Position numbers and translations under genes: made by a program. A DNA stretch of 63,647 bases, filler included, from Stramenopiles sp. TOSAG23-3 (Eukaryota): assembly GCA_900128585.1 (NCBI GenBank). It is 17 parts of 17 records of this genome, joined end to end, with 100 filler letters (N's around TTAATTAATTAA, not from the genome) between each part and the next. Parts side by side here need not be neighbours in the genome. Positions count along the whole stretch, not along the records: positions 60,018 to 63,647 come from LT644145.1; 16 more parts are not named here. One strand, 5' to 3'. Positions 3,501-63,647 of the stretch are shown piece after piece (the first letter of the stretch is position 1; each line of letters opens with the position of its first letter). A model generated the notes under the pieces. The model had not been told where the DNA came from, did no database searches, and saw only the letters and a list, made by a program, of their open reading frames with translations.

Positions 3501-3625
3501 TGGTCTGCAAAAATTGTTCTAGGAAATATCCGAATTCGAGAAGAAGTGCACTTTTTGCTGCAGCTTTGCGCTTTGAACCATTTTCCAAAGGGTGTGAGTA
3601 TTGACCTCTTGTTAGAAGGGGTGAG
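546..3625 (+). CDS. NTT/TLC (ATP:ADP antiporter family)-like MFS transporter with a long C-terminal helical, HEAT-like region; 3'-partial
   Basis: About 12 hydrophobic segments with family-like motifs TRDTLFLKSYGKDKLPF, FYVWSDVA...QQFW, RELLWLPL...ERRKTKP, followed by helical repeats (IRLAAIG, LRVSAAICL). First ATG at 546; the ORF runs into (AGAAG)n and the gap. Confidence 0.72.
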
Positions 3626-3673
3626 AAGAGAAGAGAAGAGAAGAGAAGAGAAGAGAAGAAAAGAGAAGAGAAG
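3624..3673. repeat. (AGAAG)n microsatellite at the contig end
   Basis: Directly visible pentamer run. Confidence 0.9.
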
Positions 3674-3773
3674 NNNNNNNNNNNNNNNNNNNNNNNNNNN
3701 NNNNNNNNNNNNNNNNNTTAATTAATTAANNNNNNNNNNNNNNNNNNNNNNNNNNNNNNNNNNNNNNNNNNNN
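3674..3773. other. Artificial contig spacer (first of 16)
   Basis: 44 N + TTAATTAATTAA (stops in all six frames) + 44 N, repeated identically about every 3.75 kb; contig lengths decrease monotonically. A separate 55-N scaffold gap lies at 23249-23303. Confidence 0.98.
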
Positions 3774-4215
3774 GTATAATTAAAAAATTAAAATTATCCC
3801 TCGGTTTTGTTCCTAAATGCCTGCAACAAATTTTTTGGAAAAGCCATTAAATTTTTTTTGATAGGACAATATTTGTTCGCAATGCTGTGTTCATGTTTTT
3901 CATTCCCATTTTTTAGACTTGATGAAAAAGAAGTGATGATGATGATGATGATTGTCGAATTAACGATGATTGTTTGATTTGTTTCACCATTATAACTATT
4001 TCTCGCTTTGTTAAAGCAACAAAATGTTAGCTGTTGTACATTTCAAGCTCGTAGAAAACAAAGACAGAAAAAATCAGTCCTTGCCTTTATTTAATTTACC
4101 ACACTGGTCCACATAGTAATTTCAGATTCATCCCAATCCCTAAGTTTTATTGTTCTCGATCCAACGACCAAAAACGCATCCACGCCCCTTCTACAAGAAC
4201 AAGACTTTAGCCATC

Positions 4216-5586
4216 ATGAGCGAACCTCTGTGTGATACGCTATACTTCTCAGATGATGAAGATTTGATACCAGTGCCTGCAAATGTGCTTTTAGACTCTC
4301 CTAATGTGCCACACTCCAAATTTCAGGCACCAAAGAAACGTTGTACATCATCAGCCCTTACTCCTGTGACGGAGAAAAAACAAAAAGTTGCAGCATCAGC
4401 GAAGGAAGAAAAAATTAACTTTGTTGTCGCCCATTGCCTGGTTTATCGAAAGGGGGCAAAGCCATACCATCCAGACGAGAAAAATACGTCAGCAGGGGAT
4501 TATTTTGGACATATTAATGCAGTTTGTGGATCAAAAGAAGCACTGAGAAAGACGAAAATGGCGGCAATAGAATGTGTGAAAGACAAGCAGCTTTCGCTTT
4601 TTTTCCAGCCTGCTTCGTCTTCACTGTACATAAAAGATGGCAAGGCCTTTAGAATTTTGAAGTGTGAGGACATTAAGTCGGGTAAAAAATTAATTTTGGC
4701 ATTTGGAAGTGACGGTAAAAAGCAGGGCTTGGTCCAATTCAAAACGCGGGTTGCAGAAGAAAAGAAGCTAAAAAATCTTTCGCGAAAAGTTATCATTTCA
4801 GTAAGACAAAACTGCATAACAGAAGAAAGAAAAAGTCTTCCTGGATTTCAAACCCTGACTTCAAGATCCTTTATAGCATGTGATTTATCTTTGGAAGCTT
4901 TGACTGATTTTATTAAAGTGGTGGTGCAAACAAATGAGGAGAATCCCTCGATTTTTGTCACGTCGAGTACAAAACAACTTCCGCTTCAAGAATTTAATCC
5001 CACCAGTGAGGCTGACATTGAATTGTTTGAGAAATTAGTTAAAACCTCGCCAAAAACAATTTTTCATGTTTGTTTTGGGGGCGGTGCAAAGAAAGAAACT
5101 TCCAGCGATGAAAAAATCGCTCGCATACGGACAACAGAAGAGACACTAGAAAGAATTTACTTCAACGAATCACACAGTTGGTTTCACGGATTTTCGACTG
5201 GGCATGTAAAAATGATGGTAACCTATTTTTCTCAAAAGAAAAACTTCGGGAAATTGAAAGAATTTGATAATGGAAAAGTCACGGATGTACCTTCAGTGTG
5301 GGGCATCGGACACTACAAGCACCTGAAATGTCCGAGGAAAGGGGAGTACAAACCTATTGATGGGAAAATTCCTCCGCCGAGCTCTGTGCAAGATGTAGCA
5401 GCACAGAAAGAGCAAACGGTTAGGGTTGTTGTTGAAAACCAGTCGTCGTCTTCAAAAGAAACTTTGATGGATTTGATTAAGCTTAACAATGCTTTGTATG
5501 CCGCCCATGCCGCAGGTCAAATTCCAGATGCCGTGTTTGAAATACAGAAACAAAATTTGACAAAGAAAATGAAGGAATGCAAATGA
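4216..5586 (+). CDS. Hypothetical protein convergent with the transposase; possible C-terminal SHOCT-like motif
   Basis: Open frame of about 456 aa from ATG 4216; C-terminus LIKLNNALYAAHAAGQIPDAVFEIQKQNL resembles the L..L..L...G.I...EF...K..L pattern. Confidence 0.65.
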   Translation: MSEPLCDTLYFSDDEDLIPVPANVLLDSPNVPHSKFQAPKKRCTSSALTPVTEKKQKVAASAKEEKINFVVAHCLVYRKGAKPYHPDEKNTSAGDYFGHINAVCGSKEALRKTKMAAIECVKDKQLSLFFQPASSSLYIKDGKAFRILKCEDIKSGKKLILAFGSDGKKQGLVQFKTRVAEEKKLKNLSRKVIISVRQNCITEERKSLPGFQTLTSRSFIACDLSLEALTDFIKVVVQTNEENPSIFVTSSTKQLPLQEFNPTSEADIELFEKLVKTSPKTIFHVCFGGGAKKETSSDEKIARIRTTEETLERIYFNESHSWFHGFSTGHVKMMVTYFSQKKNFGKLKEFDNGKVTDVPSVWGIGHYKHLKCPRKGEYKPIDGKIPPPSSVQDVAAQKEQTVRVVVENQSSSSKETLMDLIKLNNALYAAHAAGQIPDAVFEIQKQNLTKKMKECK

Positions 5587-7873: not shown

Positions 7874-10489
7874 CTACTTCTTCTTCGCCGCCGCTGGGCC
7901 ACTCATGCTTGGCTTCCGTTCCCCTTTGATTTTCTTCAATGGCTCCACCTTGGCGTCCTCGGCCTCCCCCCCGGTCGCGCCGGTTTGGGAGCCCGTGGCG
8001 CCACCTTTCTTCCAGTCGTTGTAATGATCTAATGCTTCTGCCTTGTGGGAACGGGACTTGTCCACGTTGATCTTGACTAGTCCAGGATCCTTGTTGTGCA
8101 CTTCATCGACCATCTTGTCCACCAAGGTGTGCAGCGACGAGGTGTCGTTCCTATTCCACTTCTTCCACCAGCGCGGGGACTCGCCCGCGCCCGTCGCCGC
8201 GCCCGTCGCCGATCTAACCCCTTGCATCGCGTCGTCCACGATGGCCTGGATCTCCACTTTCTTCGCTTCGATCGCCTTCGCTTCCGTCTCGTTGCCGCTG
8301 GCCTTCACGAGCTGCATTTTCTTCTCCAATTCCCCGTCGGCGCTAGTCGCGTTCTCTTCCTGCTTCTCTACACTATCCTCGCTGCTGCTAATCTTCTTCA
8401 ACGCGTCGGCCATCTCTTTCGCCGCCTTCTTCTCCTCGGCTTGAAGCTCGGCCCGCATGTCCGCGATGTCCTTCTCGGGCTCCTTCTTCGCCAGCGCGTC
8501 CTCGATCCTATCCTTCAAGGCCTTGACGCCGTCGGCCAGGCCCTGGGTGGCGTTGGCCTCCTTCGACGTGTCTTTGTTGGCCGTGAGCTGTTTCCGGAGC
8601 TTGGCGATCTCCGCGGTGAGGGCGTCGGCGAAGTCCTTGTCGTCGCTGCGCTCCTTCAGCTTCTCGGAAAGGATTTCTAGTGCTTTCTCCCCCTTCGCGA
8701 CCGCCTTGGCGGCCATGGCCGCCTGGGCCTTCAGCTGCAGCTGCTGGGCCTCGACGGCCTTCTCCTTGGCGCTGGCCATCAGCGCGTCGGCAAGGCCGGT
8801 CTCGTTGCGTTCCCTGGCTGCCTCGGCCTCGCCCTGGAGCTTCTTGGAGGCGGCCATGGCCGCGGCGCCCTTCGCGGAAATGGAGGAGGACTCCTTCTCG
8901 TCCGCGGCGGCGATCTCCAGGGTCTTCTGCTTGCGGTCTAGCTTCTGGGCCAACGCGAGGTCGCCCCCTTTGCGGGCGGCCGCAAGGGCTTTCTTCAAGG
9001 TCTGGGCTTCGGCGGAGAGCTTGCCAGAGCTCGCCTCGACGGCGCCCTCGATGGCATCGGCCTGGGCCTGGGCGGCCTCCAGCTCTGCCCGGTCGAGCTC
9101 CTTGGACAGGGCCGCGTGCTTCGTGACGTTCCCCTGCTGGTTGGCCTGGTCGGCGAGCGCCCGGAGCTTCTCCACCGCGGCCATCTTGTCCCCGGCCTCC
9201 GCTTTCATCGCGGCGCCCTCCTCCTGGGCGATGCTATCGACGGAGTCGGCCTCCTTCGACTCTTCCTTCATCTTGTCGGCGACGATCCGCTTCTCGGTAG
9301 CCTCCTCCTTGAGCTTGGCCACGAGCTTCTCGTCCAGCTTGTCCTCGGCCTCGGCGGCCTTCTTTTCGGCCTCGGCGGCGGCCGCTTCGGCCTCCTCGAC
9401 GGCGGTGTCGGCGTTGGCCTTCGCCTCGGCGTTCGCAGCGCCCTCCGCCTTCTTGGCCTGGGCCTTCTTCACCTCCGCGGCAGCAATCATGGACGCGGCC
9501 TTCTTCTTGTCACCGGATGCGGCGGCCTCGTTGGCTTTCTTCAGCTCGGCCTTGGCCTCGTCCTGGTCCTTCAGGGCCTTCTCCTCCTTGGTGGCGGCGT
9601 CGGCGGCGGCGTCCTCGCTCCGCGCGGCGGCCGGGACCCCCTTGGCCTGGGCCTGCTTGGCGACCAGCTTCATGTCCTTGGCCTCCTTTTCCAGCTTGGC
9701 GGCCTTGCCGGCGTCGCCGGTGGCCTTAGCGACCTCCGCCTCCTCCTCGAGCTTGTCGCCGGCCTTCGCGGACGCGTCCCCTTTGGCCTGGTCGGCCGCG
9801 GCCCGGGAGGCCTTGGAGGCTATCTTGATCATCTTCAGGAACTTGGTCTTGGTCTTGGCAACCGGGTGCTTCGCGGACGGCATGAAGTGAATCGGGTAGC
9901 CGAGCGTCGAAGCGTCGGTCTTCTTGGCGTCCTGACTGCCGCTGCCCGACCCGGTGCCCCCGCTGAGGAGCGAGCTTTTCACGGGCGAGCTTTTCACGGG
10001 CGAGCTTTTATCAAAGTGCTTCGTTGGGTTCCTGGCCAGGTGGGTGGCCTCCTCCGCGTCTGGGAACAGGCCCACGAGCGACTTGATCTCGTGGGACAGG
10101 TCCTCGCACGGGCACTCCTCCATGCAGGAGTGCAGGCAGGCGACGTTGCCTTTGCACTGCGCCTCGCACTGCTTGGCGCATTTCGCGCTGATGGTGGACA
10201 GCGGGCACACGACGCACTCCCGGTGGCACCGTTGCATGCAGCTGTGCTTCTTGGCCGGGTTCTTGGTGAACCAACGGCATTTGTCCTTGCCCACGCAGCG
10301 GTTGAGGCACAACTGGTTGGAAATAATCACGGAGGACTTTCCGTCATCGTTTTCCCCCCCAGCCTTTGCCAACCCTGGGGCGTCCAAGGTCGCAATCCCC
10401 GCCTCGATCCGAACGGCCGAAGCCGAGGACGCCACCAAGGCAGTGAAGGCAATAACGGCAGCAGTGGTCGTAGCAGCTATGACTCTCAT
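7874..10489 (-). CDS. Secreted protein with a Cys-rich N-terminal domain and a long Ala/Glu/Lys coiled coil
   Basis: 871 aa; signal peptide MRVIAATTTAAVIAFTALVASSASA; CxxxC clusters; strong GC3 bias. Confidence 0.85.
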   Translation of the reverse strand: MRVIAATTTAAVIAFTALVASSASAVRIEAGIATLDAPGLAKAGGENDDGKSSVIISNQLCLNRCVGKDKCRWFTKNPAKKHSCMQRCHRECVVCPLSTISAKCAKQCEAQCKGNVACLHSCMEECPCEDLSHEIKSLVGLFPDAEEATHLARNPTKHFDKSSPVKSSPVKSSLLSGGTGSGSGSQDAKKTDASTLGYPIHFMPSAKHPVAKTKTKFLKMIKIASKASRAAADQAKGDASAKAGDKLEEEAEVAKATGDAGKAAKLEKEAKDMKLVAKQAQAKGVPAAARSEDAAADAATKEEKALKDQDEAKAELKKANEAAASGDKKKAASMIAAAEVKKAQAKKAEGAANAEAKANADTAVEEAEAAAAEAEKKAAEAEDKLDEKLVAKLKEEATEKRIVADKMKEESKEADSVDSIAQEEGAAMKAEAGDKMAAVEKLRALADQANQQGNVTKHAALSKELDRAELEAAQAQADAIEGAVEASSGKLSAEAQTLKKALAAARKGGDLALAQKLDRKQKTLEIAAADEKESSSISAKGAAAMAASKKLQGEAEAARERNETGLADALMASAKEKAVEAQQLQLKAQAAMAAKAVAKGEKALEILSEKLKERSDDKDFADALTAEIAKLRKQLTANKDTSKEANATQGLADGVKALKDRIEDALAKKEPEKDIADMRAELQAEEKKAAKEMADALKKISSSEDSVEKQEENATSADGELEKKMQLVKASGNETEAKAIEAKKVEIQAIVDDAMQGVRSATGAATGAGESPRWWKKWNRNDTSSLHTLVDKMVDEVHNKDPGLVKINVDKSRSHKAEALDHYNDWKKGGATGSQTGATGGEAEDAKVEPLKKIKGERKPSMSGPAAAKKK

Positions 10490-19585: not shown

Positions 19586-22474
19586 TTAACAGCCACTATG
19601 CCGTTGCTGCAGCAACCTCCGTCTCCTCCCTCCTCCCGCAGCCCGAAACGTGAGACCGTCGAACTCTATCCGTGCGCCGTTTGTTTCCGCGCTCCATTTC
19701 AACGAACCGCACGACCGTCGAAGAAATGCTCCCACGTCTTCTGGAATTTCACCATTCCATACAAACTTTCCATTGTTTGCCGTGATGTCCTTCCTTGCCG
19801 TAGTTTCAAGCCATTCCTTGAAGACGTCGGCGCCCTTCTCATCACTGTCCACTTTAAATGTAATCGCTGCTGGGTCTGCACTCCCAGACGTCTGGCGGAC
19901 AACTTCGATGCCGTTCATGAACTTTTTCCCGAACAAATCAAGGTTCACCGGAATACCGCAGGTTCCTTCCTTGGGGTCCACAGGGCACAAACTTGCCTCT
20001 TCCTCGTTGTTGATATTTTGCCAGAGCTGTGTACATACCAATGTCTTTTTATCTACACCATTGGCGCTATGTCGCGTAATTGTTGAATCATGCCTCGTAA
20101 CTGTTGGACTCTGCCTCCATTTATTAATTTCCTGAACGTTCTCGCAGTCATTCTTTAGGTACGCAGCCTTATACGCGTCGCATAGGCATGATGCGGATGC
20201 TAGGTTGGCAAGGGGGTACTTGTTGGTCTCTTCTTCGCCACTGAAGGCAAGTAGTTTTCTCCTTTGTCGCGGATTTGTTGAATCATGCCTCGGAACTGTT
20301 GAACTCTGCCTCCATTTATTTATCTTTTCCGGCCCCGTTCCTGGTTTTGTTGTTTTGTCTACCATCTCCAGCTGTTCATCGCTCAAGCTCTTACGAAAGC
20401 CATTTGTTATTGCATTATACCCCCCCGCGTTGGCAGCTGTTAGCCTTGCTCTCTTCCTGTATGTCTTTAAAAAACTTGATAGGGTCAATAGTTTGTTTTT
20501 GACGCCACGACCTATCGTTACGCCACGACCTTTCGTTACGCCACGACCTTTCGTTACGCCACGACCCTTCGTTACGCCACGACCCTTCGTTACGCCACGA
20601 CCTTTCGTTACGCCACGACCTTTCGTTACGCCACTACCCTGTTTGACGGCTTTCCCAGTCCCAGCAGCTTGTGCTGTCTTTGCTGTTTTTTTAGTTGTCG
20701 TTGCTGCCTTCGCGGTTTTGATTCCTTTCGTTGTTGCCTTCGCGGTTTTGATTCCTTTCGTTGCTGCATTCGCGATTTTGATACCTTTCGTTGCTGTCAT
20801 CATTCCCCTGAGCCCCGCCGAGACCAGTTTTGCACCTGGAATTGCCACTGACGCCACGTTTGCGATGTGGTACGCTGCCACCGCAACCTTCCTGACGTGT
20901 TTGTTTTTCGCGATTTTTCCTACGGCTTTGCCGAATTTAGAGTTTGCCACCTTTTTCGCCACGCGTTTTGTCACTTTTCCAACGGCTTTAGCAAACTTTG
21001 AGTTCTTCACGTGCTTAGCAACGTGCTTAGCAGCTTTAACGACATGTTTGCCGACATGTTTTCCCATGAATTTGCCGGCCTTCGTTTTCGATGCCCATTT
21101 CGCACCTTTCACAATACCTTTTCCGATTGCACCATACGCCTTGTCGATTCCTTTGCTCGTTGCTACTACTGCTCGCCAAGAATGTTTGTGGGCGACCTTT
21201 GCCGCTTTGCCGACTGCCTTTGCGGCCGTCTTGACACCCTTGGCAGTTTTCTTCGCAGCATTCTTCGCTGCTTGAACGCTTTTCTTCGCAGTCTTCTTCG
21301 CCGCTTGAACGCTTTTCTTTGCAGCCTTTTTCACGGCGTTTTTCATTTTTCCAGCGAATTTCCCAGTCCTCTTTGCCACCTTGATGCTTTTCTTGGCGGC
21401 CTTTTTCGCCACTTGAACGCTTTTCTTCGCAGCCTTCTTGGTTGCCTTGACGCTTTTCTTCACTGCCTTCTTCGTTGCCTTGACGGTTTTCTTCACTGCC
21501 GATTTTACTCTCCCAAAGAATCCCTTTTTCTTCTTCGCCGCCTTCTTGCCCTTCGCGGCTTTCGCGGCCTTCTTCGCTGCCCTTGCTGCCTTCTTCGCTG
21601 CCCTTGCTGCCTTCTTTGCTGCCCTTGTGGCCTTCTTTGCTGCCCTTGTGGCCTTCCTCGATGCCCTTGTGGCCTTCCTCGATGCCCTTGCGGCCTTACG
21701 TGTGGCCCTCCGACTCCGGCGCTGGCTGGCGGCACGACCGCGGGCACGACCGCGGGCACGGCCACGACCGCGGCCGCCCCGGCCCCGACCTCCTCTACCC
21801 TTCATAGCTTTCTGAGATGCACGTTGGTTTACTTCCAAAAATCCCATTTTGTGCGTTGCCATTAACTGAAGTAGTTTGTCTGCTGGTTTTGCCGTTGCTA
21901 CGGATTGATTGGCCTTACTTAACGATGGACTATCGTCGTCATCCTCCTCCTCATCATCCTCTTCTGTCGCATTGATCGATTTGCCGTCTTGGGATGATAG
22001 ACTGCCAGTCTCGGCATCGTCCTCGTCCTCGCCCTCCTCCTCGTCGTCGTCCTCCTCTTCACCTTTAGCAATCCCCAATTTGCTGCCTTTCATCAAACGA
22101 GATAGCGTATTGTCGACGCTTGTTGAGTTGTCATCATCCTCGTCATCGTCGTCCTCCTCATTGTCGCGTTCAACAATGGTTGGTAGCTGGTCGCCTAGGC
22201 GGGTGCGGTTTTCAGCGGCGTCGTCGTCGTCCTCCTCCTCATCATCCTCGTCGATCTCATCGTCGTCGATGGCCTCTGTCGATGAGTCATCGTCGTCATC
22301 GTCGTCCTCCTCCTCGCCGTTAACTGTCGCTTGATTTAGTTCTAACAATGAATTTGTTCTCGTTGTCCCCGTGGTCTGCTCCCCTGCCCTGACACATTTT
22401 TGTTTTGCCTCTTCGCTAAGCAGTGGCGGTTGTTCGTCTCTGATTTGATAAACTTGAATGAACGTAGCTTCACT
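19586..22474 (-). CDS. Low-complexity protein with Asp/Glu tracts, Lys/Ala/Arg-rich repeats, GRGVTK repeats and a Cys-containing C-terminal domain (5'-partial)
   Basis: 920-aa ORF whose frame stays open upstream to the contig edge (SEATFIQVYQ...TNSLLELNQ). Confidence 0.8.
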   Translation of the reverse strand, partial: SEATFIQVYQIRDEQPPLLSEEAKQKCVRAGEQTTGTTRTNSLLELNQATVNGEEEDDDDDDDSSTEAIDDDEIDEDDEEEDDDDAAENRTRLGDQLPTIVERDNEEDDDDEDDDNSTSVDNTLSRLMKGSKLGIAKGEEEDDDEEEGEDEDDAETGSLSSQDGKSINATEEDDEEEDDDDSPSLSKANQSVATAKPADKLLQLMATHKMGFLEVNQRASQKAMKGRGGRGRGGRGRGRARGRARGRAASQRRSRRATRKAARASRKATRASRKATRAAKKATRAAKKAARAAKKAARAAKKAAKAAKGKKAAKKKKGFFGRVKSAVKKTVKATKKAVKKSVKATKKAAKKSVQVAKKAAKKSIKVAKRTGKFAGKMKNAVKKAAKKSVQAAKKTAKKSVQAAKNAAKKTAKGVKTAAKAVGKAAKVAHKHSWRAVVATSKGIDKAYGAIGKGIVKGAKWASKTKAGKFMGKHVGKHVVKAAKHVAKHVKNSKFAKAVGKVTKRVAKKVANSKFGKAVGKIAKNKHVRKVAVAAYHIANVASVAIPGAKLVSAGLRGMMTATKGIKIANAATKGIKTAKATTKGIKTAKAATTTKKTAKTAQAAGTGKAVKQGSGVTKGRGVTKGRGVTKGRGVTKGRGVTKGRGVTKGRGVTIGRGVKNKLLTLSSFLKTYRKRARLTAANAGGYNAITNGFRKSLSDEQLEMVDKTTKPGTGPEKINKWRQSSTVPRHDSTNPRQRRKLLAFSGEEETNKYPLANLASASCLCDAYKAAYLKNDCENVQEINKWRQSPTVTRHDSTITRHSANGVDKKTLVCTQLWQNINNEEEASLCPVDPKEGTCGIPVNLDLFGKKFMNGIEVVRQTSGSADPAAITFKVDSDEKGADVFKEWLETTARKDITANNGKFVWNGEIPEDVGAFLRRSCGSLKWSAETNGARIEFDGLTFRAAGGGRRRRLLQQRHSGC
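20502..20640 (-). repeat. 18-bp coding tandem repeat (about 7 x GRGVTK)
   Basis: ACGCCACGACC(T/C)TTCGTT units on the + strand. Confidence 0.95.
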
Positions 22475-23230: not shown

Positions 23231-23908
23231 TCGACACTTTCTTTCTTTNNNNNNNNNNNNNNNNNNNNNNNNNNNNNNNNNNNNNNNNNNNNNNNNNNNN
23301 NNNATAATAATCGTCTGTCTACAAGCTCTCTATATAATTTAACCATCTTTAGCAAGAAAGCATCTTCCGTCCTCCTCTAATTACTATACTAATAAATTGT
23401 ACTTATAAATATATTAAATAGAGAAAAGAAAAGAAGAAAAAAGCGAAACAGAAGCACAGCGAAGCGAAGCGAATAGGAGAAGAAGGAAGAACGGAAAGAG
23501 AAAAGGAAGAGAAAATAATGGAGATCATTTTTCTGCTACCTATTCGTATGTTGTTTTGTTCTTATAGGCTTATGGTAAAAAATCTAAAATTATTCCTGCG
23601 GCGTACTTATCATATACTACAGTACTGTTATCATATACTTAATAGAAGAAGAAATAACCTGAAGTAGAAGTAATTTCATCACAGCCGTCCGTCTCCTCTT
23701 CCTTCTTCTTTCTCTTTTGTTTTTCGTTTCATCCGTATCTGGTTGTAATCATTTTATAGATACGTACACTCGGTTTGTTCATGAAAGAAGTAAATAGAAA
23801 GCACTCCAGCGAAAGTAGAATTGAAAAGAACGGCACTAAAAGTTTAACAACGCTTTCTTAACAAAATCATTTTTAACAAGCAGTTATATAAAATAAGTAT
23901 AATACAAC

Positions 23909-53534: not shown

Positions 53535-53790
53535 TTTTCCTCTTCTTCTCCTTCCCCTTCTTGTTCTTGTTCTTTCTTCTTTCTTCTTTCTTCTTCTTGT
53601 TCTTCTTTCTTCTTCTTTCTTCTTTCTTTTTCTTCTTTCTTTTTCTTCTTTCTTCTTCTTCTTCTTTCTTCTTCTTCTTCTTCATCTTCTTCTTCTTTCT
53701 TCTTCTTTCTTCTTCTTCTTCTTGTTCTTCATCTTCTTCTTCTTTCTTCTTCTTTCTTCTTCTTGTTCTTCTTTCTTCTTCCTTTCTTTT
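53535..53790. repeat. TTC/TTTC-rich low-complexity tract
   Basis: Visible; similar tracts at about 16000-16140, 30096-30195 and 41318-41400. Confidence 0.9.
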
Positions 53791-55799: not shown

Positions 55800-56101
55800 A
55801 AAGGGTTGAACAAGTACATAAACATGGCTTGAATTATTATTACTAAATCGAAAATAATAAATATTTTCTCTGTCCACCTTCCTACCTACCTTTGGAGACT
55901 CGTCTGTCGATAAAAGTTAAGACTATCAATGTGATTTTAAGTCATTTACAACAACTATGTATTTCATGTAGTATTTATTGTATCTTATCCTATTTAAGGG
56001 TGCTAAATGTATTGTTGAAATGTCCTAGATAAAAAAACAAGGGAAAGTATAGTAAGTATATATAGCGAGGAGAAAAGGATGATGGGTGTGATGGGGAAGG
56101 G

Positions 56102-56103
<2 letters not shown>

Positions 56104-56179
<76 letters not shown>

Positions 56180-56180
56180 A
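56104..56180. repeat. (GAAA)n microsatellite
   Basis: Perfect tetramer run to the contig end. Confidence 0.95.
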
Positions 56181-56280
56181 NNNNNNNNNNNNNNNNNNNN
56201 NNNNNNNNNNNNNNNNNNNNNNNNTTAATTAATTAANNNNNNNNNNNNNNNNNNNNNNNNNNNNNNNNNNNNNNNNNNNN

Positions 56281-58602
56281 GCCCAAATGCTAGTGGAAAA
56301 ATTGGCAAGCGCGACGGCAAATGCTCTGACGCCCTCGTCGGAAATGCACGAAGCGCGGGAGGCCTCCCCCAAGAGGACCCGGAGAGCCCTGCGGGAACCG
56401 CTGGCGAACCTCCTGTCCCCGCTGTTTTCAAAGGACCCCGGCTTTGGGGTCGAGGATGGGGACGACGTTGGGGGGTCGGGGGGCGCCCAGAAAGAGGCCG
56501 GCGAGGAGGACGGCCATGGCGCCCCTGCCTCGGACGACGACGCGACGGACCGCTGGGTGAGCGCAACCGCGGCCGAGGGGGAGCAAGCGGGCGATGTGAA
56601 GCAAGCGGGCGGTGTCGAGTTGGTGGACTCCCCCTCCCACGGGAACGGCGCGCCGGAGGAGGCGAAAGCGGACCGGAAGCCGCGCCGGGCCAAGCCCGTG
56701 CGAGAGACGGGCACGGGGAAGGTGTCCAATTTTCTCAAGATGCTGGAAGAGACCGACGCAAAAGCCGAGAGAGAGTTGTCGACGACGATGTCGCGCCTCT
56801 CCTCCCCCTCGGGGGCGCAAGACGAGAGTTCAAGCTTCTTGAGCAATTCCCACGTCGCCCTGAGCGAGCAGGCCGTCCGGGCCCAAAACGTGGCAGCCCG
56901 CGGGGACCAGCCGGCCCAGGACGACTGGGAGCGCCAAAGCAGCATTAGCGCCTACGCCCCCAGCCTCAGCGGAATAAGCACCGCCCAATCAAGCGTCTAC
57001 GGCAGCGTTCGGGGCCGCATGACCAGCATCACCATGGAGTTGGAGGACAAGACGCGCACGCTGACCGCAATGAAGCAAAAGCTGCGCCAGGAGCGGTCGC
57101 GCGTCCGTGACCTGGAGGAGCACATGGCGAAGCAGGAGGCCCGCAAAATAAAGGGCGTCCGAGAAGAGTACGAGGACACCATACAAAGGCACCTGAGCTT
57201 CATCGACCGCCTGCTGGCGGACAAGCAGACCCTGTCGGAGAAGTGCGACGCGCTTGCGTCCGAGCTGAAGCGCGTCGAAAACATGTACTCCGGGGGGGTC
57301 GGCGAGCTGAAGGAAAGGCACGCCGCCGAAATGAAGAAGCAGAAAGACGCCTGGTTGGCGCAGGAGAAAGTGCGCCGAGAGAAATGGATGGAGGACAAGA
57401 CCAGGGAGATCAAAACGACGACGATCAAGGGCTTAGAGCCCGAGGTCCAGCGCATTTTGTCCAAGCACAAGCGGGAGCTGCGCCGCATAGACGAGAGGAA
57501 GCAAGACGAGCTGCGCCAGGCCAAGGAGGAGCTCGTAGCGAGGCACGAGGAGAGCTTGCGTGTGGTCCGTGAGCGATACGAGGAAGAGAAGGAGCACGCC
57601 CTGTCCACGGAGCACGGGAACTGGAGGGACAAGCTGAACGACGTCACTGACGAGTGCGAGGCACGCGTGAACGAGATACGGGACCGCCTGGAAGACCGGG
57701 TCGAGCGCCAGAGAAACCGTTTCGAGAAAGAGCGCGCGGACATGATCAAGCGCCACGCCATGCAGGTAGACAAAGTGCAGCGGCAGGAGGTGAAGAAGAG
57801 GGAGGAACTAGAAGCACGGCACACGTCGTTGCTCGAAGACTTGCAGGCAAAGCAAGACGCGCGCATGACCGTGGAGTCTGCGCGCTTCGTGGAGCAGCGG
57901 AACGAGTGGCAGCGGCTTCTGGAGGAAAAGCTCAGGCAGGAGGCGGTCAAGAAGGAGCAAAAATTAAGGGACAGGCTTCGGGAAGAGCGAGACGCCCAAA
58001 TAGACGAGATTATTGAGCGTTTGGACGAGGAGAACAACAAACAGCTGAGCGACTTGACGGCCGAATACGAATCGAGAATACGAGACATGGAGAGGCAGCA
58101 CAACGTTGCCCTGGGCGACCAGGACAAGTCGGCCGCAGATGCCAGAAAGCGGGCCGACCGCCTGTCCTCCCAGTTGGAAGCGTCCAAGGACAGGTGCGAC
58201 AGTTTAGAGGCCAGGCTGGACGAGGCCCAAGACGAAATCTCCGTGTTCAAGGACAAGCTTGGCCGCCTTACACGCGTCGCGGACGACAAAGAGATCAACC
58301 TGCGCCGAGAGTACGCCGAGAAGCGAAGCGGGGATTTGAAGGCCATCGACGGGTTGAAAGTACAAGTGGTCCGACTCCAAAACCAAGTTGCTTCGTTCGA
58401 GGAAGAACGAGAGGAAATCGTAGAAGCAGAGCGGCGCAAGAAAGAAGACGAGATCGATACGCTCCAGGCAAGGGTGGAGCAGACCATCTCTAGAAAAGAC
58501 TCGTTGATTAAGATGCTTCAAGAGCAGGTCGAAGATTTGTCCGTGCGGGCCAAAACAGCAGAAATGCTACTAGAGAGGCAGCGCACTGAATTGCTATCTT
58601 AA
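56281..58602 (+). CDS. CEP131: Centrosomal protein CEP131/AZI1 (probably 5'-partial)
   Basis: YEDTIQRHLSFIDRLLADKQTLSEKC and EKVRREKWMEDKTREIKTTTIKGLEPEVQRI signature blocks within a long coiled coil. Confidence 0.9.
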   Translation, partial: AQMLVEKLASATANALTPSSEMHEAREASPKRTRRALREPLANLLSPLFSKDPGFGVEDGDDVGGSGGAQKEAGEEDGHGAPASDDDATDRWVSATAAEGEQAGDVKQAGGVELVDSPSHGNGAPEEAKADRKPRRAKPVRETGTGKVSNFLKMLEETDAKAERELSTTMSRLSSPSGAQDESSSFLSNSHVALSEQAVRAQNVAARGDQPAQDDWERQSSISAYAPSLSGISTAQSSVYGSVRGRMTSITMELEDKTRTLTAMKQKLRQERSRVRDLEEHMAKQEARKIKGVREEYEDTIQRHLSFIDRLLADKQTLSEKCDALASELKRVENMYSGGVGELKERHAAEMKKQKDAWLAQEKVRREKWMEDKTREIKTTTIKGLEPEVQRILSKHKRELRRIDERKQDELRQAKEELVARHEESLRVVRERYEEEKEHALSTEHGNWRDKLNDVTDECEARVNEIRDRLEDRVERQRNRFEKERADMIKRHAMQVDKVQRQEVKKREELEARHTSLLEDLQAKQDARMTVESARFVEQRNEWQRLLEEKLRQEAVKKEQKLRDRLREERDAQIDEIIERLDEENNKQLSDLTAEYESRIRDMERQHNVALGDQDKSAADARKRADRLSSQLEASKDRCDSLEARLDEAQDEISVFKDKLGRLTRVADDKEINLRREYAEKRSGDLKAIDGLKVQVVRLQNQVASFEEEREEIVEAERRKKEDEIDTLQARVEQTISRKDSLIKMLQEQVEDLSVRAKTAEMLLERQRTELLS

Positions 58603-59917: not shown

Positions 59918-60096
59918 NNNNNNNNNNNNNNNNNNNNNNNNNNNNNNNNNNNNNNNNNNNNTTAATTAATTAANNNNNNNNNNNNNNNNNNNNNNNNNNN
60001 NNNNNNNNNNNNNNNNNCTTCGATAAAGTTCTGGACGATTGATATAAACTAAGTAAGAACCAACTCTTTTATTAATATCAAATTATCTTTTTACTA

Positions 60097-60109
60097 GGTT
60101 ATGGGCCCA
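60097..60109 (+). promoter_or_regulatory. Primer-binding site, half-tRNAiMet type
   Basis: GGTTATGGGCCCA, the PBS type used by Drosophila copia, complementary to the anticodon arm of initiator tRNA-Met. Confidence 0.85.
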
Positions 60110-60155
60110 AAGCGCACACAGCACTTTGGGATTCACTTGAAATAAAGAAAATAAA

Positions 60156-61061
60156 ATGCAACAAAATATTCTACCAGTCGAGTCGTACAAGAAACTGTAC
60201 GATGGCGATTACGAATACTTCAACAAATTCAGCGAAGAGATCAAGAGTCTTCTGCGTCCACTCAATTCACTATCAGGGTTGCTGCTGGATGACACCATTT
60301 CGGTTGTCAAAATGAAGCGAGGTCCCAGCACGAATTACCAACAATCAGGGAAACTTACCACGAGTTTACAACTGCTGCACTCAGTGATACGCTCGTACAA
60401 AGGAGTCGGTAAGACAGATCTGATCGAAATAACAAAGGACGCCCTAGAGGGATGTCCATCTAGCGTAAGAGACGTTATCCAAGAAATTATCACTGATACG
60501 TCTGAAAGTCAAGAAAAAGAAAGGATGAAAACCCCTGAAAAATTCTATTCAGAATGCGATCTCCATCCAACTGGCAAACTGACGGAAGAAATCCCGTGGG
60601 GAGAATTGATTGAAGCCGTGGAGACGGACGAAAATTATGAATTCCGCGAGGCAAACAAGCTATGGGCGACGCATGAACTTGACCTCCTTGGAGGATTCAG
60701 ATCGCTTTCAAAGACCGATCAAGGAAAGATTCTAAGAACGGGAATAATATCGCGGAAGCAAATTAATGAAGCGATAGCTGTGATTACAGACGTGGTCCAC
60801 AAAAAGCTCTCGGACACAGCCAAGGAAATCTCTAAGCTGCACGATGAAAACACAGGCCAACTGAAGGACGGATATGAAATATACAAGATCCTAAGTACGC
60901 CGACTACAAATGAAATGAAAAACTTAATTATTACCGCTAGCAAGTTATTCTCTGATCGCGGTACCATGACAAGCGAGCAACACTTACGCGAAACTTTCCG
61001 GAACTGTCGCTCCTTTGAACGAGCAATTAAGAGCCTGAACACTGATCTTGAGCCTTCCTAA
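60156..61061 (+). CDS. Gag-like ORF without a CCHC knuckle
   Basis: Starts 46 nt after the PBS; KLYDGDYEYF and DGYEIYKIL loosely match Copia capsid motifs. Confidence 0.65.
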   Translation: MQQNILPVESYKKLYDGDYEYFNKFSEEIKSLLRPLNSLSGLLLDDTISVVKMKRGPSTNYQQSGKLTTSLQLLHSVIRSYKGVGKTDLIEITKDALEGCPSSVRDVIQEIITDTSESQEKERMKTPEKFYSECDLHPTGKLTEEIPWGELIEAVETDENYEFREANKLWATHELDLLGGFRSLSKTDQGKILRTGIISRKQINEAIAVITDVVHKKLSDTAKEISKLHDENTGQLKDGYEIYKILSTPTTNEMKNLIITASKLFSDRGTMTSEQHLRETFRNCRSFERAIKSLNTDLEPS

Positions 61062-63413
61062 AATCGGCTCAGAACCTTCGGCAGTATTTGCTACTTTCAC
61101 GAACGGAGCGTAACATCACACAAACACGATAGCACCAAAGAATTAATATTCGTCGGGTTCAATATCGATGAACCATACCGTGCAATTGATCCACGGACAC
61201 AAGGCCGCAAGATAATATCGTCTTGGCATGCCATATTTGACGAAACAAAAGTCCCCAGGGACTGGCTCAAGAATATTACCGTGTCAAGACTTAAGCCTAT
61301 TCCTATTTGGACAGATACCGACCCCGATGACGATAACGAACCACTTACGTTTAATCCACCACCTGCCTCGACTTCAGAAGGGGTAGAAAGTGATAAAGAA
61401 GAAAAACTCGACCATGGAGAAGTGGAAGAGAGGGGACCTACACCGGCAGATGATGACGATAATGTCAGGAAAGAAGGTGAAGCTCTGACTCAACCATCAC
61501 CACCCAGAAAAATATTGCCACAACGATCGACAAGGGGAAAACTCAAAACAACTTGGAGTCCCACACTTGAGAGTGTCAAAACATATCCGAAAGACCAACG
61601 CAACAGCACCAAACCGAGTACTTATATTGCGGAAGCATTTCTAGCGATAGGAACATTTCTATCGTGCTCCATGATAGCGGACGACGAAACAAAAGACCCA
61701 AAATTTAGTGAGGCAAAACTCAAGGATGTTAGCAAAGAGAAAAGAGACGAAACACTGCTAAGAGATACTTACCCAAAAGCGTGGGGAATCAAAAACCCCA
61801 AGTCAATCAAATCAGCACAGAAGTCACCGTACTGGCCAGAATGGGAGAAAGCGATAGAAGTCGAGATCAGGAACCTAATGAACCATGACACATTCACATA
61901 CGAAGATACCGACAGACAAAGGAAACTCGGCACGAAATTCGTATTTGTAGCAAAACACGATAAAGAAGGGAATATCACCAAATTCAAGGCAAGATTAGTC
62001 GCAAAAGGATATGAGCAAATCCACCTACTGCACTACGACAAAACGTTCGCACCCGTGGCCTACATGAGCTCGATTCTCATGCTGCTAGTGATTTCGGTCA
62101 CGCTTTCCCTATCGTTGTTTATGATGGACTTCAAAGGAGCCTTTTTGCACTCCCTAATGCCTAAAGAGTACCCAGTGTACATCGAAACCCCCTATGGCAT
62201 GCATTGCCCACCTAATAGAGTGATCAGACTCAATAAATCACTATACGGTACGAAAAACGCGGGTCACCTCTGGTGGGAGGACTTAAAGAAACTCCTGATC
62301 AGCGAAGGATTCACCCAGAGCACACACGACCAATGTGTGTTCTATCGACGAGACAAGAAAACAGGAACCATAACGTTACTGGCGACCTGGGTAGACGATG
62401 TACTGGTTTGTTCAAACGATCCTGACATTACCAACTTGAAAAGAAAACTGGAGAAAAAGAAATTCCAAATTAGTACCTTTGAAAAACTCGAATGGTTCTT
62501 AGGGATCTCCATTGAAGTGCAGGAAGATGGCTCGATTATACTCGACCAATCAGCCTACATAGAACACCTACTCAATAAATTTAGTATGACCGAATGCCAT
62601 ACAGTATCCACACCGATAAGCCATAACGAGTTAAACCAGGAAGATGTGTCACCCAAAATAGACACGACCAAGGTTCCATACCGAGGCTTAGTAGGCGGAC
62701 TATCTCACCTTGCTCGATTCACTAGGAGTGACATCCTCTATGCGGTATTTTACTTTGCTCGGTTCCAGAAATCGCCTAATCAAGCGCATTGGAAGGGCCT
62801 CAAGCGAATTTTAAGATACCTAAAAGGGACGAAAGATGTTAAGATTCACATCCGACACCAAGGGAAAGAAGGGGAATTCCTACTTGAAGCATTCGTTGAC
62901 GCCGACTGGGCAACAGCCAAGAGTGACTACAAATCCACGTCGGGCTACTGCATCAAGCTAAATGGTAACAATGTTATGTGTGTGTCCCGCAAACAAAAAG
63001 CAACAGCACAATCCTCCTGTGAGGCCGAGTTATACGCCGCCGGCGTATGCACGATGGACCTAATATGGGCACGAAACATCCTCGAGGACATACTGTCAAT
63101 AAAATTCCCACCAACAAAACTTTACTGCGACAACCAAGCTGTTATCGACAACGTAAAGGGGGATAAAAATTCCAAGCGACTGAAACACTGCATGGTCAAA
63201 CTGAACTTACTACGTGACCACAACAATAGGGAGATCTCTCTTCAGAAAGTGCACACAAAAGAGAATACAGCAGATATTTTCACCAAAGTGCTACATCGGG
63301 GACCGTTCGAATATCTCCGAGAGAAGCTATTGCCCAATTCGAGGGTTCCACCACAGCATGTTCAACAGTTAGTTGGTTCTCATTTTCTAAATGGAATATT
63401 GAGATGTATGTGA
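61062..63413 (+). CDS. Copia pol remnant: SH3-like domain, reverse transcriptase and RNase H
   Basis: NRLRTFGSICY...FVGF...YRAIDP...AIFDE; KFKARLVAKGY, DFKGAFLH, LNKSLYGTK, WVDD; DADWA, SSCEAEL, CDNQ, NTADIFTK. Confidence 0.93.
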   Translation, partial: NRLRTFGSICYFHERSVTSHKHDSTKELIFVGFNIDEPYRAIDPRTQGRKIISSWHAIFDETKVPRDWLKNITVSRLKPIPIWTDTDPDDDNEPLTFNPPPASTSEGVESDKEEKLDHGEVEERGPTPADDDDNVRKEGEALTQPSPPRKILPQRSTRGKLKTTWSPTLESVKTYPKDQRNSTKPSTYIAEAFLAIGTFLSCSMIADDETKDPKFSEAKLKDVSKEKRDETLLRDTYPKAWGIKNPKSIKSAQKSPYWPEWEKAIEVEIRNLMNHDTFTYEDTDRQRKLGTKFVFVAKHDKEGNITKFKARLVAKGYEQIHLLHYDKTFAPVAYMSSILMLLVISVTLSLSLFMMDFKGAFLHSLMPKEYPVYIETPYGMHCPPNRVIRLNKSLYGTKNAGHLWWEDLKKLLISEGFTQSTHDQCVFYRRDKKTGTITLLATWVDDVLVCSNDPDITNLKRKLEKKKFQISTFEKLEWFLGISIEVQEDGSIILDQSAYIEHLLNKFSMTECHTVSTPISHNELNQEDVSPKIDTTKVPYRGLVGGLSHLARFTRSDILYAVFYFARFQKSPNQAHWKGLKRILRYLKGTKDVKIHIRHQGKEGEFLLEAFVDADWATAKSDYKSTSGYCIKLNGNNVMCVSRKQKATAQSSCEAELYAAGVCTMDLIWARNILEDILSIKFPPTKLYCDNQAVIDNVKGDKNSKRLKHCMVKLNLLRDHNNREISLQKVHTKENTADIFTKVLHRGPFEYLREKLLPNSRVPPQHVQQLVGSHFLNGILRCM

Positions 63414-63559
63414 ACAACTTAACTGCCCTGCGAATAGTATTATTATTATTTTTGCAATAATAATAATAATAATATCATTGATGATATTGATGATCGAAGC
63501 AGTCGTCCGGATACAGTTGAGATTTGACACCGTTAAACAGAATGATCTGTTATAACGGT

Positions 63560-63568
63560 GAGAAGGGG
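63560..63568 (+). promoter_or_regulatory. Putative polypurine tract
   Basis: GAGAAGGGG immediately before the inferred 3' LTR start at 63569. Confidence 0.6.
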
Positions 63569-63647
63569 TAGAGAAATGAGACTTCTCTATTCTACATTTG
63601 AGTAGATTACGCGGAAGATACATAGATGAGGAAAACCTTGAAGTCAC

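Follow-up and report, generated by a model that had tools for sequence, protein, structure and literature searches.

The window analysed here, a stretch of 63,647 nt from Stramenopiles sp. TOSAG23-3 (assembly GCA_900128585.1), carries at its far end a Copia-type retrotransposon in which gag and reverse transcriptase (RT) are separated by a single in-frame stop codon. The element lies alone on one contig of 3,630 bp (LT644145.1, window positions 60018-63647), which both starts and stops inside the long terminal repeat (LTR), with 79 bp of it on either side, and contains no genomic sequence beyond the element. A sequence-only reading of this locus had noted the missing protease and integrase core. 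It had explained them most simply by an in-frame internal deletion in an element mobilised in trans, and it had also considered a selected integrase-free retroelement. All parts of the element described below lie on the plus strand.

For comparison we used the Logan contigs of 4 of 24 listed public runs (X2-X5); this comparison covers the listed pieces and can show the presence of a sequence, not its absence. X2 and X3 are other samples that carry the organism label of the possible source run X1 (share 0.99), which lies outside the comparison, while X4 and X5 come from other studies. Depth figures given for their contigs are per-contig means and not copy numbers.

Both ends of the element could be defined in this way. 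All four runs join position 63647 back to position 60018 via 251 letters, and the LTR is therefore 409 bp long (63569-63647, the 251 letters, 60018-60096). The contig begins with the last 79 bp of the 5' LTR (60018-60096), and it ends, together with the window, after the first 79 bp of the 3' LTR (63569-63647). The LTR edges at 60096 and 63569 are marked by unlike flanks: two different ones start behind 60096 in X2, and three precede 63569 in X2, X3 and X4. Since different, unlike flanks adjoin the LTR edges in these runs, the LTR occupies several insertion sites. The LTR begins with TAG and ends with CTA, instead of the usual TG...CA, and its ends form an imperfect terminal inverted repeat (TAGAGAAATG / CTTTTTACTA).

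The interior between the two edges, from primer binding site (PBS) to polypurine tract, measures 3,472 bp, in line with the uninterrupted span of about 3.47 kb proposed earlier. The PBS (60097-60115) is antisense to the anticodon stem-loop region of the initiator tRNA-Met and is of the half-tRNA type. Its positions 60097-60109 match 13 of 13 letters of a human antisense tRNA-Met(i) oligonucleotide printed in PMC1797187 and of the zebrafish anti-iMet probe. By its sequence, this PBS implies half-tRNA priming from the initiator tRNA-Met. It resembles that of Drosophila copia, for which PMC5371799 describes a half-tRNA primer, in being antisense to an internal part of this tRNA. A tRNA gene search found no tRNA gene in the 63,647-nt window, hence no initiator tRNA-Met gene of the host for comparison. 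The polypurine tract GGTGAGAAGGGG (63557-63568, with an unbroken purine run at 63560-63568) directly adjoins the 3' LTR, whose start is given by the contigs. The locus thus shows the LTRs, PBS and polypurine tract expected of a Ty1/copia element.

The first open reading frame (ORF1, 60156-61058) encodes the N-terminal 301 codons of gag and stops short of the zinc knuckle; it matches no Pfam family. It ends at a TAA (61059-61061), behind which the same frame reopens for 783 codons up to a TGA at 63411-63413. Only one stop thus interrupts the roughly 1,085 codons of the two parts taken together. The 783-codon part starts with the SH3-like C-terminal domain of integrase (61065-61256; PF25597, residues 2-65, E 2.6e-09), which is the sole integrase remnant and aligns with the relatives P0004, P0006 and P0007. 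It is followed by a reverse transcriptase of the RVT_2 family with a WVDD box (61914-62618; PF07727, residues 285-519, E 3.5e-52, score 177.9 bits, cut-off 31.6) and by an RNase H-like region (62916-63218). The Pfam match of the latter (PF13456, RVT_3, residues 619-719) has an E of 0.01 and stays below the cut-off; the acidic positions of RNase H (DADW, CEAE, CDNQ, ADIF) are nevertheless visible and, like the WVDD box, common to the relatives. A search of solved structures gave no sequence match for the pol part. The RVT_2 match assigns the element to the Ty1/copia group (Pseudoviridae), and the SH3-like tail upstream of RT agrees with the integrase-before-RT order of that group. ORF and Pfam analysis thus bear out the earlier description of this locus in both coordinates and content, from the gag-like ORF and the TAA at 61059 to the SH3-like block, RT and RNase H.

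The same holds for what had been reported as absent. CCHC, D[ST]G[AS] and HHCC patterns occur in none of the plus frames of the 3,630-bp contig. When the full-length relative P0141 was compared with the window by tblastn, its residues 1-305 and 999-1761 matched, and nothing was found of residues 306-998, which contain the knuckle, protease and integrase. The window copy therefore lacks the zinc knuckle, the aspartic protease and the integrase HHCC and DDE core that an autonomous element needs.

Full-length relatives

Relatives of ORF1 are few. Among 1.84 billion representative proteins, 19 match at E <= 0.001, all of them environmental, and three relatives are of similar length. The nearest ones come from marine metagenome assemblies. 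P0141 (1,765 aa) is 51% identical over all of ORF1, which corresponds to its residues 1-305. Further downstream it displays everything that the window copy is missing: a zf-CCHC knuckle at 398-413, DSGA at 602, HVDIMY at 828, SDGEKG at 902 and DSQQNLAE at 930, before LNRCRTFG at 998. In P0131 (1,923 aa), the block homologous to ORF1 (residues 17-309) is more diverged, with 24% identity over residues 20-311, and Pol_BBD, gag_pre-integrs, rve, SH3_retrovirus and RVT_2 follow past it. A scan of metagenomes with ORF1 gave 168 pattern matches, of which two were confirmed, L001 and L002; neither is a near-identical copy. L001 is a full-length relative with 50% identity, encoded by one ORF of 1,653 codons that is open at the 3' contig end. 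L002 was disregarded as a relative, being an 18-residue match on an unrelated 1-kb contig.

Where the window copy has its two remaining blocks side by side, P0141, P0131 and L001 all carry the CCHC knuckle, Pol_BBD (the protease region), gag_pre-integrs, rve and SH3 in between, and each does so in one stop-free ORF. Because these three are built in this way, the normal state of the lineage is gag, protease, integrase, RT and RNase H in one unbroken frame. The search for full-length relatives that had been suggested for this locus was thus productive, and the contigs of the organism's own runs also include such a copy, described below.

The joint between 61060 and 61061

Homology to the relatives breaks exactly at the stop codon. 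The gag homology of the window copy runs to ...SLNTDLEPS and the integrase homology begins with NRLRTFGS, both abutting the TAA. In P0001, P0141 and L001, the equivalent gag stretch reads ...LPHS or ...MPHS and continues with YIIGLGNWIRQ. On the other side, YQEYFGKDPARSI and the whole catalytic core precede the equivalent of NRLRTFGS in P0006, and in P0004 the integrase core likewise comes immediately before this point.

The decisive sequence is a contig of X3 (record 7, 5,235 bp). Its positions 331-1373 equal 60018-61060 and its positions 3543-5235 equal 61061-62753, with no other letters in either stretch. Precisely between 61060 and 61061 it holds 2,169 extra letters, or 723 codons, and the flanks of 1,043 and 1,693 bases are without a single mismatch. 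The content of this piece was read at its two ends. A contig of X4 (record 14) agrees with the window up to 61060 and then runs on with C...; the TA of the window and this run-on translate as YIIGLGNWIR, as in P0141 and L001. A contig of X5 (record 21) begins to match at 61061, and the letters before it, together with those of X2, translate as YQEYLGKNPSREI (Y-Q-E-Y-L-G-K-N-P-S-R-E-I) followed by N-R-L-R-T-F-G. This integrase stretch is also found in P0006, P0141 and L001.

The stop codon is composed of the TA of a tyrosine codon (TAC) and the A of an isoleucine codon (ATA); the letters before 61061 end with ..AT in both X2 and X5. Read from these codons, the TAA is an accident of the joint. 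This also disposes of programmed readthrough of a gag-pol stop, a candidate that we rejected because the stop is made by the joint and is not conserved in the stop-free P0141, P0131 and L001. Splicing or intron loss was rejected as well: the missing piece starts with CATC... and ends with ...AAAT, showing neither GT...AG nor AT...AC borders, and the joint, which has an overlap of 0 letters, cannot slide. The predicted RNA fold at 61020-61100 is not unusual (z -1.35, with 22 of 200 shuffles folding as well).

A second, different joint was found in X2 (record 3, 474 bp). Here, the final 40 letters of the full-length piece stand between 61060 and 61061, and the terminal 30 of these equal the loose end of the X5 contig. 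The X2 form has thus lost 2,129 letters and is out of frame, ending in a TAG, while the window form has lost 2,169 letters and ends in the TAA. The two share the same left breakpoint and both encode the same Gag fragment of 301 residues. The X2 joint contig has a depth of 6, equal to that of its neighbours, and no full-length branch is among the pieces listed.

The copies in X4 and X5 differ from the window copy at the coding level. In the X4 copy, 21 letters (3 + 18) are absent, in frame, at 61470-61491, within the acidic stretch that links the integrase tail to RT. Of 31 coding differences listed for X4 and X5, 26 are synonymous and 5 are not; at least 26 further differences exist. Since 26 of the 31 listed differences are synonymous, the family is under purifying selection, as would be expected of an active autonomous lineage. 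The RNA runs X15-X20 show small shares (0.06-0.13).

Possible origins of the deleted copy

Whichever origin applies, in vivo or artefact, we are dealing with a one-off derivative of an ordinary Copia element. The account that we favour, and consider somewhat likelier than its rivals taken together, is that the contig represents a defective copy, produced by a single deletion, of an autonomous single-ORF Ty1/copia element. The intact parent is predicted to be about 6,459 bp long and to encode a polyprotein of 1,808 codons in the order gag, protease, integrase, RT and RNase H. Lost with the 2,169 bp would be the C-terminal end of gag, zinc knuckle included, as well as the protease and two domains of integrase, its zinc finger and catalytic core. 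As neither side differs from the full-length copy and the TAA is a simple fusion of two codons, the loss was probably a single, recent event. Most likely RT, while making cDNA, switched templates without homology at a site where this happens readily, and the product would be a defective element, present either as an integrated copy or as unintegrated cDNA. With LTRs, PBS and polypurine tract retained, such a copy could in principle still be copied in trans; apart from chance readthrough, it would hardly give rise to RT.

For the deletion as such we lean towards an origin in vivo. The joint is direct and not inverted, has no overlap, and lies on unbranched contig paths, and the X2 deletion shares its left breakpoint with the window deletion to the base. 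According to an excerpt of PMC1855051, chimeras formed by multiple displacement amplification (MDA) are inverted in more than 85% of cases, and over 70% have overlaps of 2-21 nt. Several observations weigh against a copy of this kind in the organism. The direct joint of 61060 to 61061 is found in none of the listed contigs of the four runs X2-X5. The organism's runs hold only 4-8 million letters, which would fit amplified single-cell material, where chimeric joints are common. X3 contains a further unlike junction behind 62753, and the deleted copy has neither a genomic flank nor a target-site duplication.

These points make it quite possible, though in our view rather less probable, that the joint was made in vitro from a full-length element, as a chimera of single-cell whole-genome amplification or an assembly error, and that no such copy exists in the organism. 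X3, X4 and X5 contain the full-length form, the window flanks are identical to a full-length copy, and the contig is a 3.6-kb orphan among other unplaced contigs. Moreover, three small samples of the same organism show three different rearranged joints (that of the window, that of X2 with its additional 40 letters, and that of X3 behind 62753), and MDA can create deletions and rearrangements, as excerpts of PMC1855051 and PMC5372508 describe. However, amplification of this material is a presumption, and direct, overlap-free joints are the minority class of MDA chimeras in the excerpt of PMC1855051. A left breakpoint exactly common to two samples is unexpected for random chimeras, the assembler path through the joint is unbranched from LTR to LTR, and the X2 joint contig stands at the depth of its neighbours, with no competing full-length branch listed. 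Like MDA chimeras, the window joint comes from a small sample that was probably amplified, and it is missing from the listed contigs of the other runs; unlike most of them, it is direct and overlap-free, with a left end that recurs in X2.

A non-autonomous family, in which the deleted element is packaged and copied by the proteins of full-length copies and has multiplied, appears improbable. In its favour, the deleted element keeps LTRs, PBS, polypurine tract and the 5' portion of gag, the organism also has full-length copies as helpers, and there are several LTR flanks (three before 63569 and two behind 60096). But these different flanks are not assignable to deleted copies, the divergence from the full-length copy is zero, and a second instance of the joint was found neither in the listed contigs of X2-X5 nor in the remaining window, where tblastn and blastn searches of the other 16 contigs gave no further copy of the element and no missing protease-integrase piece. 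The joint also had 0 matches in viral_contigs, a collection unlikely to contain the element. Of the proposal of an in-frame deletion derivative mobilised in trans, the deletion thus stands, with homology breaking at the TAA and the X3 copy holding the 2,169 letters; its mobilisation finds no counterpart in the listed contigs of X2-X5, which contain neither this joint nor a second insertion site of the deleted form.

Least likely by far is a retroelement that lacks integrase, is maintained by selection and makes its RT through readthrough of the TAA or reinitiation there, or else forms one half of a bipartite pair with a partner supplying protease and integrase. Such a gag-stop-RT layout in a Copia element would have been a new retroelement architecture. 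The sole point in its favour is the long open frame, about 1,085 codons with one stop placed at the joint. Yet these frames are inherited unchanged from the full-length copy, with 0 mismatches, and because of this 100% identity neither they nor the intact catalytic residues testify to selection on an integrase-free form. Two split codons account for the TAA, one deletion in three stays in frame by chance, and the X2 form, with its 40 letters, is in fact out of frame. The close relatives that contain both blocks (P0141, P0131 and L001) have protease and integrase in one stop-free ORF, and in P0006 and P0004 the integrase core immediately precedes the corresponding point. The sequence-only reading had itself named a joint that is unique, next to near-identical full-length copies, as the mark of a one-off deletion or misassembly, and this is the situation encountered: a near-identical full-length copy exists in X3, and the direct joint is absent from the listed X2-X5 contigs. 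The idea of an integrase-free or bipartite element is thereby refuted; the window copy is either one deleted copy of an ordinary autonomous element or an artefact derived from one.

The exact common breakpoint of the two deletions hints at a hot spot of template switching. A more specific, rather improbable version of this idea is that 61060 is a defined break point, for example because a shorter gag RNA ends there or RT pauses strongly, and that deletion derivatives recur at it. If so, the element would regularly spawn copies encoding nothing but a truncated Gag, which might interfere with or regulate the full-length element. Truncated Gag is known to restrict Ty1.

Relation to known elements and setting of the contig

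With its RVT_2-type RT and an integrase SH3-like domain upstream of it, the element resembles Drosophila copia and other members of the Ty1/copia group (Pseudoviridae). The order of LTR, PBS, polypurine tract and LTR, and gag-pol as one ORF, which is seen in the relatives of the window element together with the full order of protease, integrase, RT and RNase H (P0141, P0131, L001), are further features in common with Ty1/copia. In contrast to Ty1/copia, the window copy has no gag C-terminus, protease or integrase core, the N-terminal 300 residues of its gag match no Pfam gag family, and its LTR has TAG...CTA ends and not TG...CA. By description, and not by sequence comparison, it can be likened to the Copia-like CoDi elements of diatoms, as a Copia-type element in a marine stramenopile setting. 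The full-length elements represent a Copia lineage of marine protists that is so far undescribed and appears to be active, characterised by a gag N-terminus unknown to Pfam, a one-ORF gag-pol, half-tRNA-iMet priming and TAG...CTA LTRs.

BARE-2 and Dasheng are internally deleted, non-autonomous LTR retrotransposons, and such deletions can arise by RT template switching. The window copy is similar to internally deleted copies of this kind in that it has lost an internal coding segment but kept LTRs, PBS and polypurine tract, and in that its host also contains a full-length relative. Unlike in families of this kind, where many copies share one deletion, the window joint was found once and in 0 of 4 other runs, and the second, different joint shares one of its breakpoints.

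The window itself (positions 1-63647) is an artificial chain of 17 contigs of 3,630-3,673 bp, sorted by descending length, of which the element contig is the last. The contigs are separated by spacers of the form N44-TTAATTAATTAA-N44, and genes on either side of a spacer are unlinked. Chains of unplaced short contigs from small samples call for caution, and rearranged joints in them need a check at the level of reads. One additional run of 55 N occurs at 23249-23303.

The composition of the chain is uneven. The contigs at 8001-10000, 20001-22000 and 56001-58000 have a G+C fraction of 0.51-0.65, against about 0.34-0.46 in the remaining window. They also show a stronger AT skew than the rest, with -0.47 at 8001-10000, -0.44 at 20001-22000 and +0.41 at 56001-58000. 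The window also has a tandem repeat with an 18-bp unit at 20502-20638 and an array of TTC over 53537-53781.

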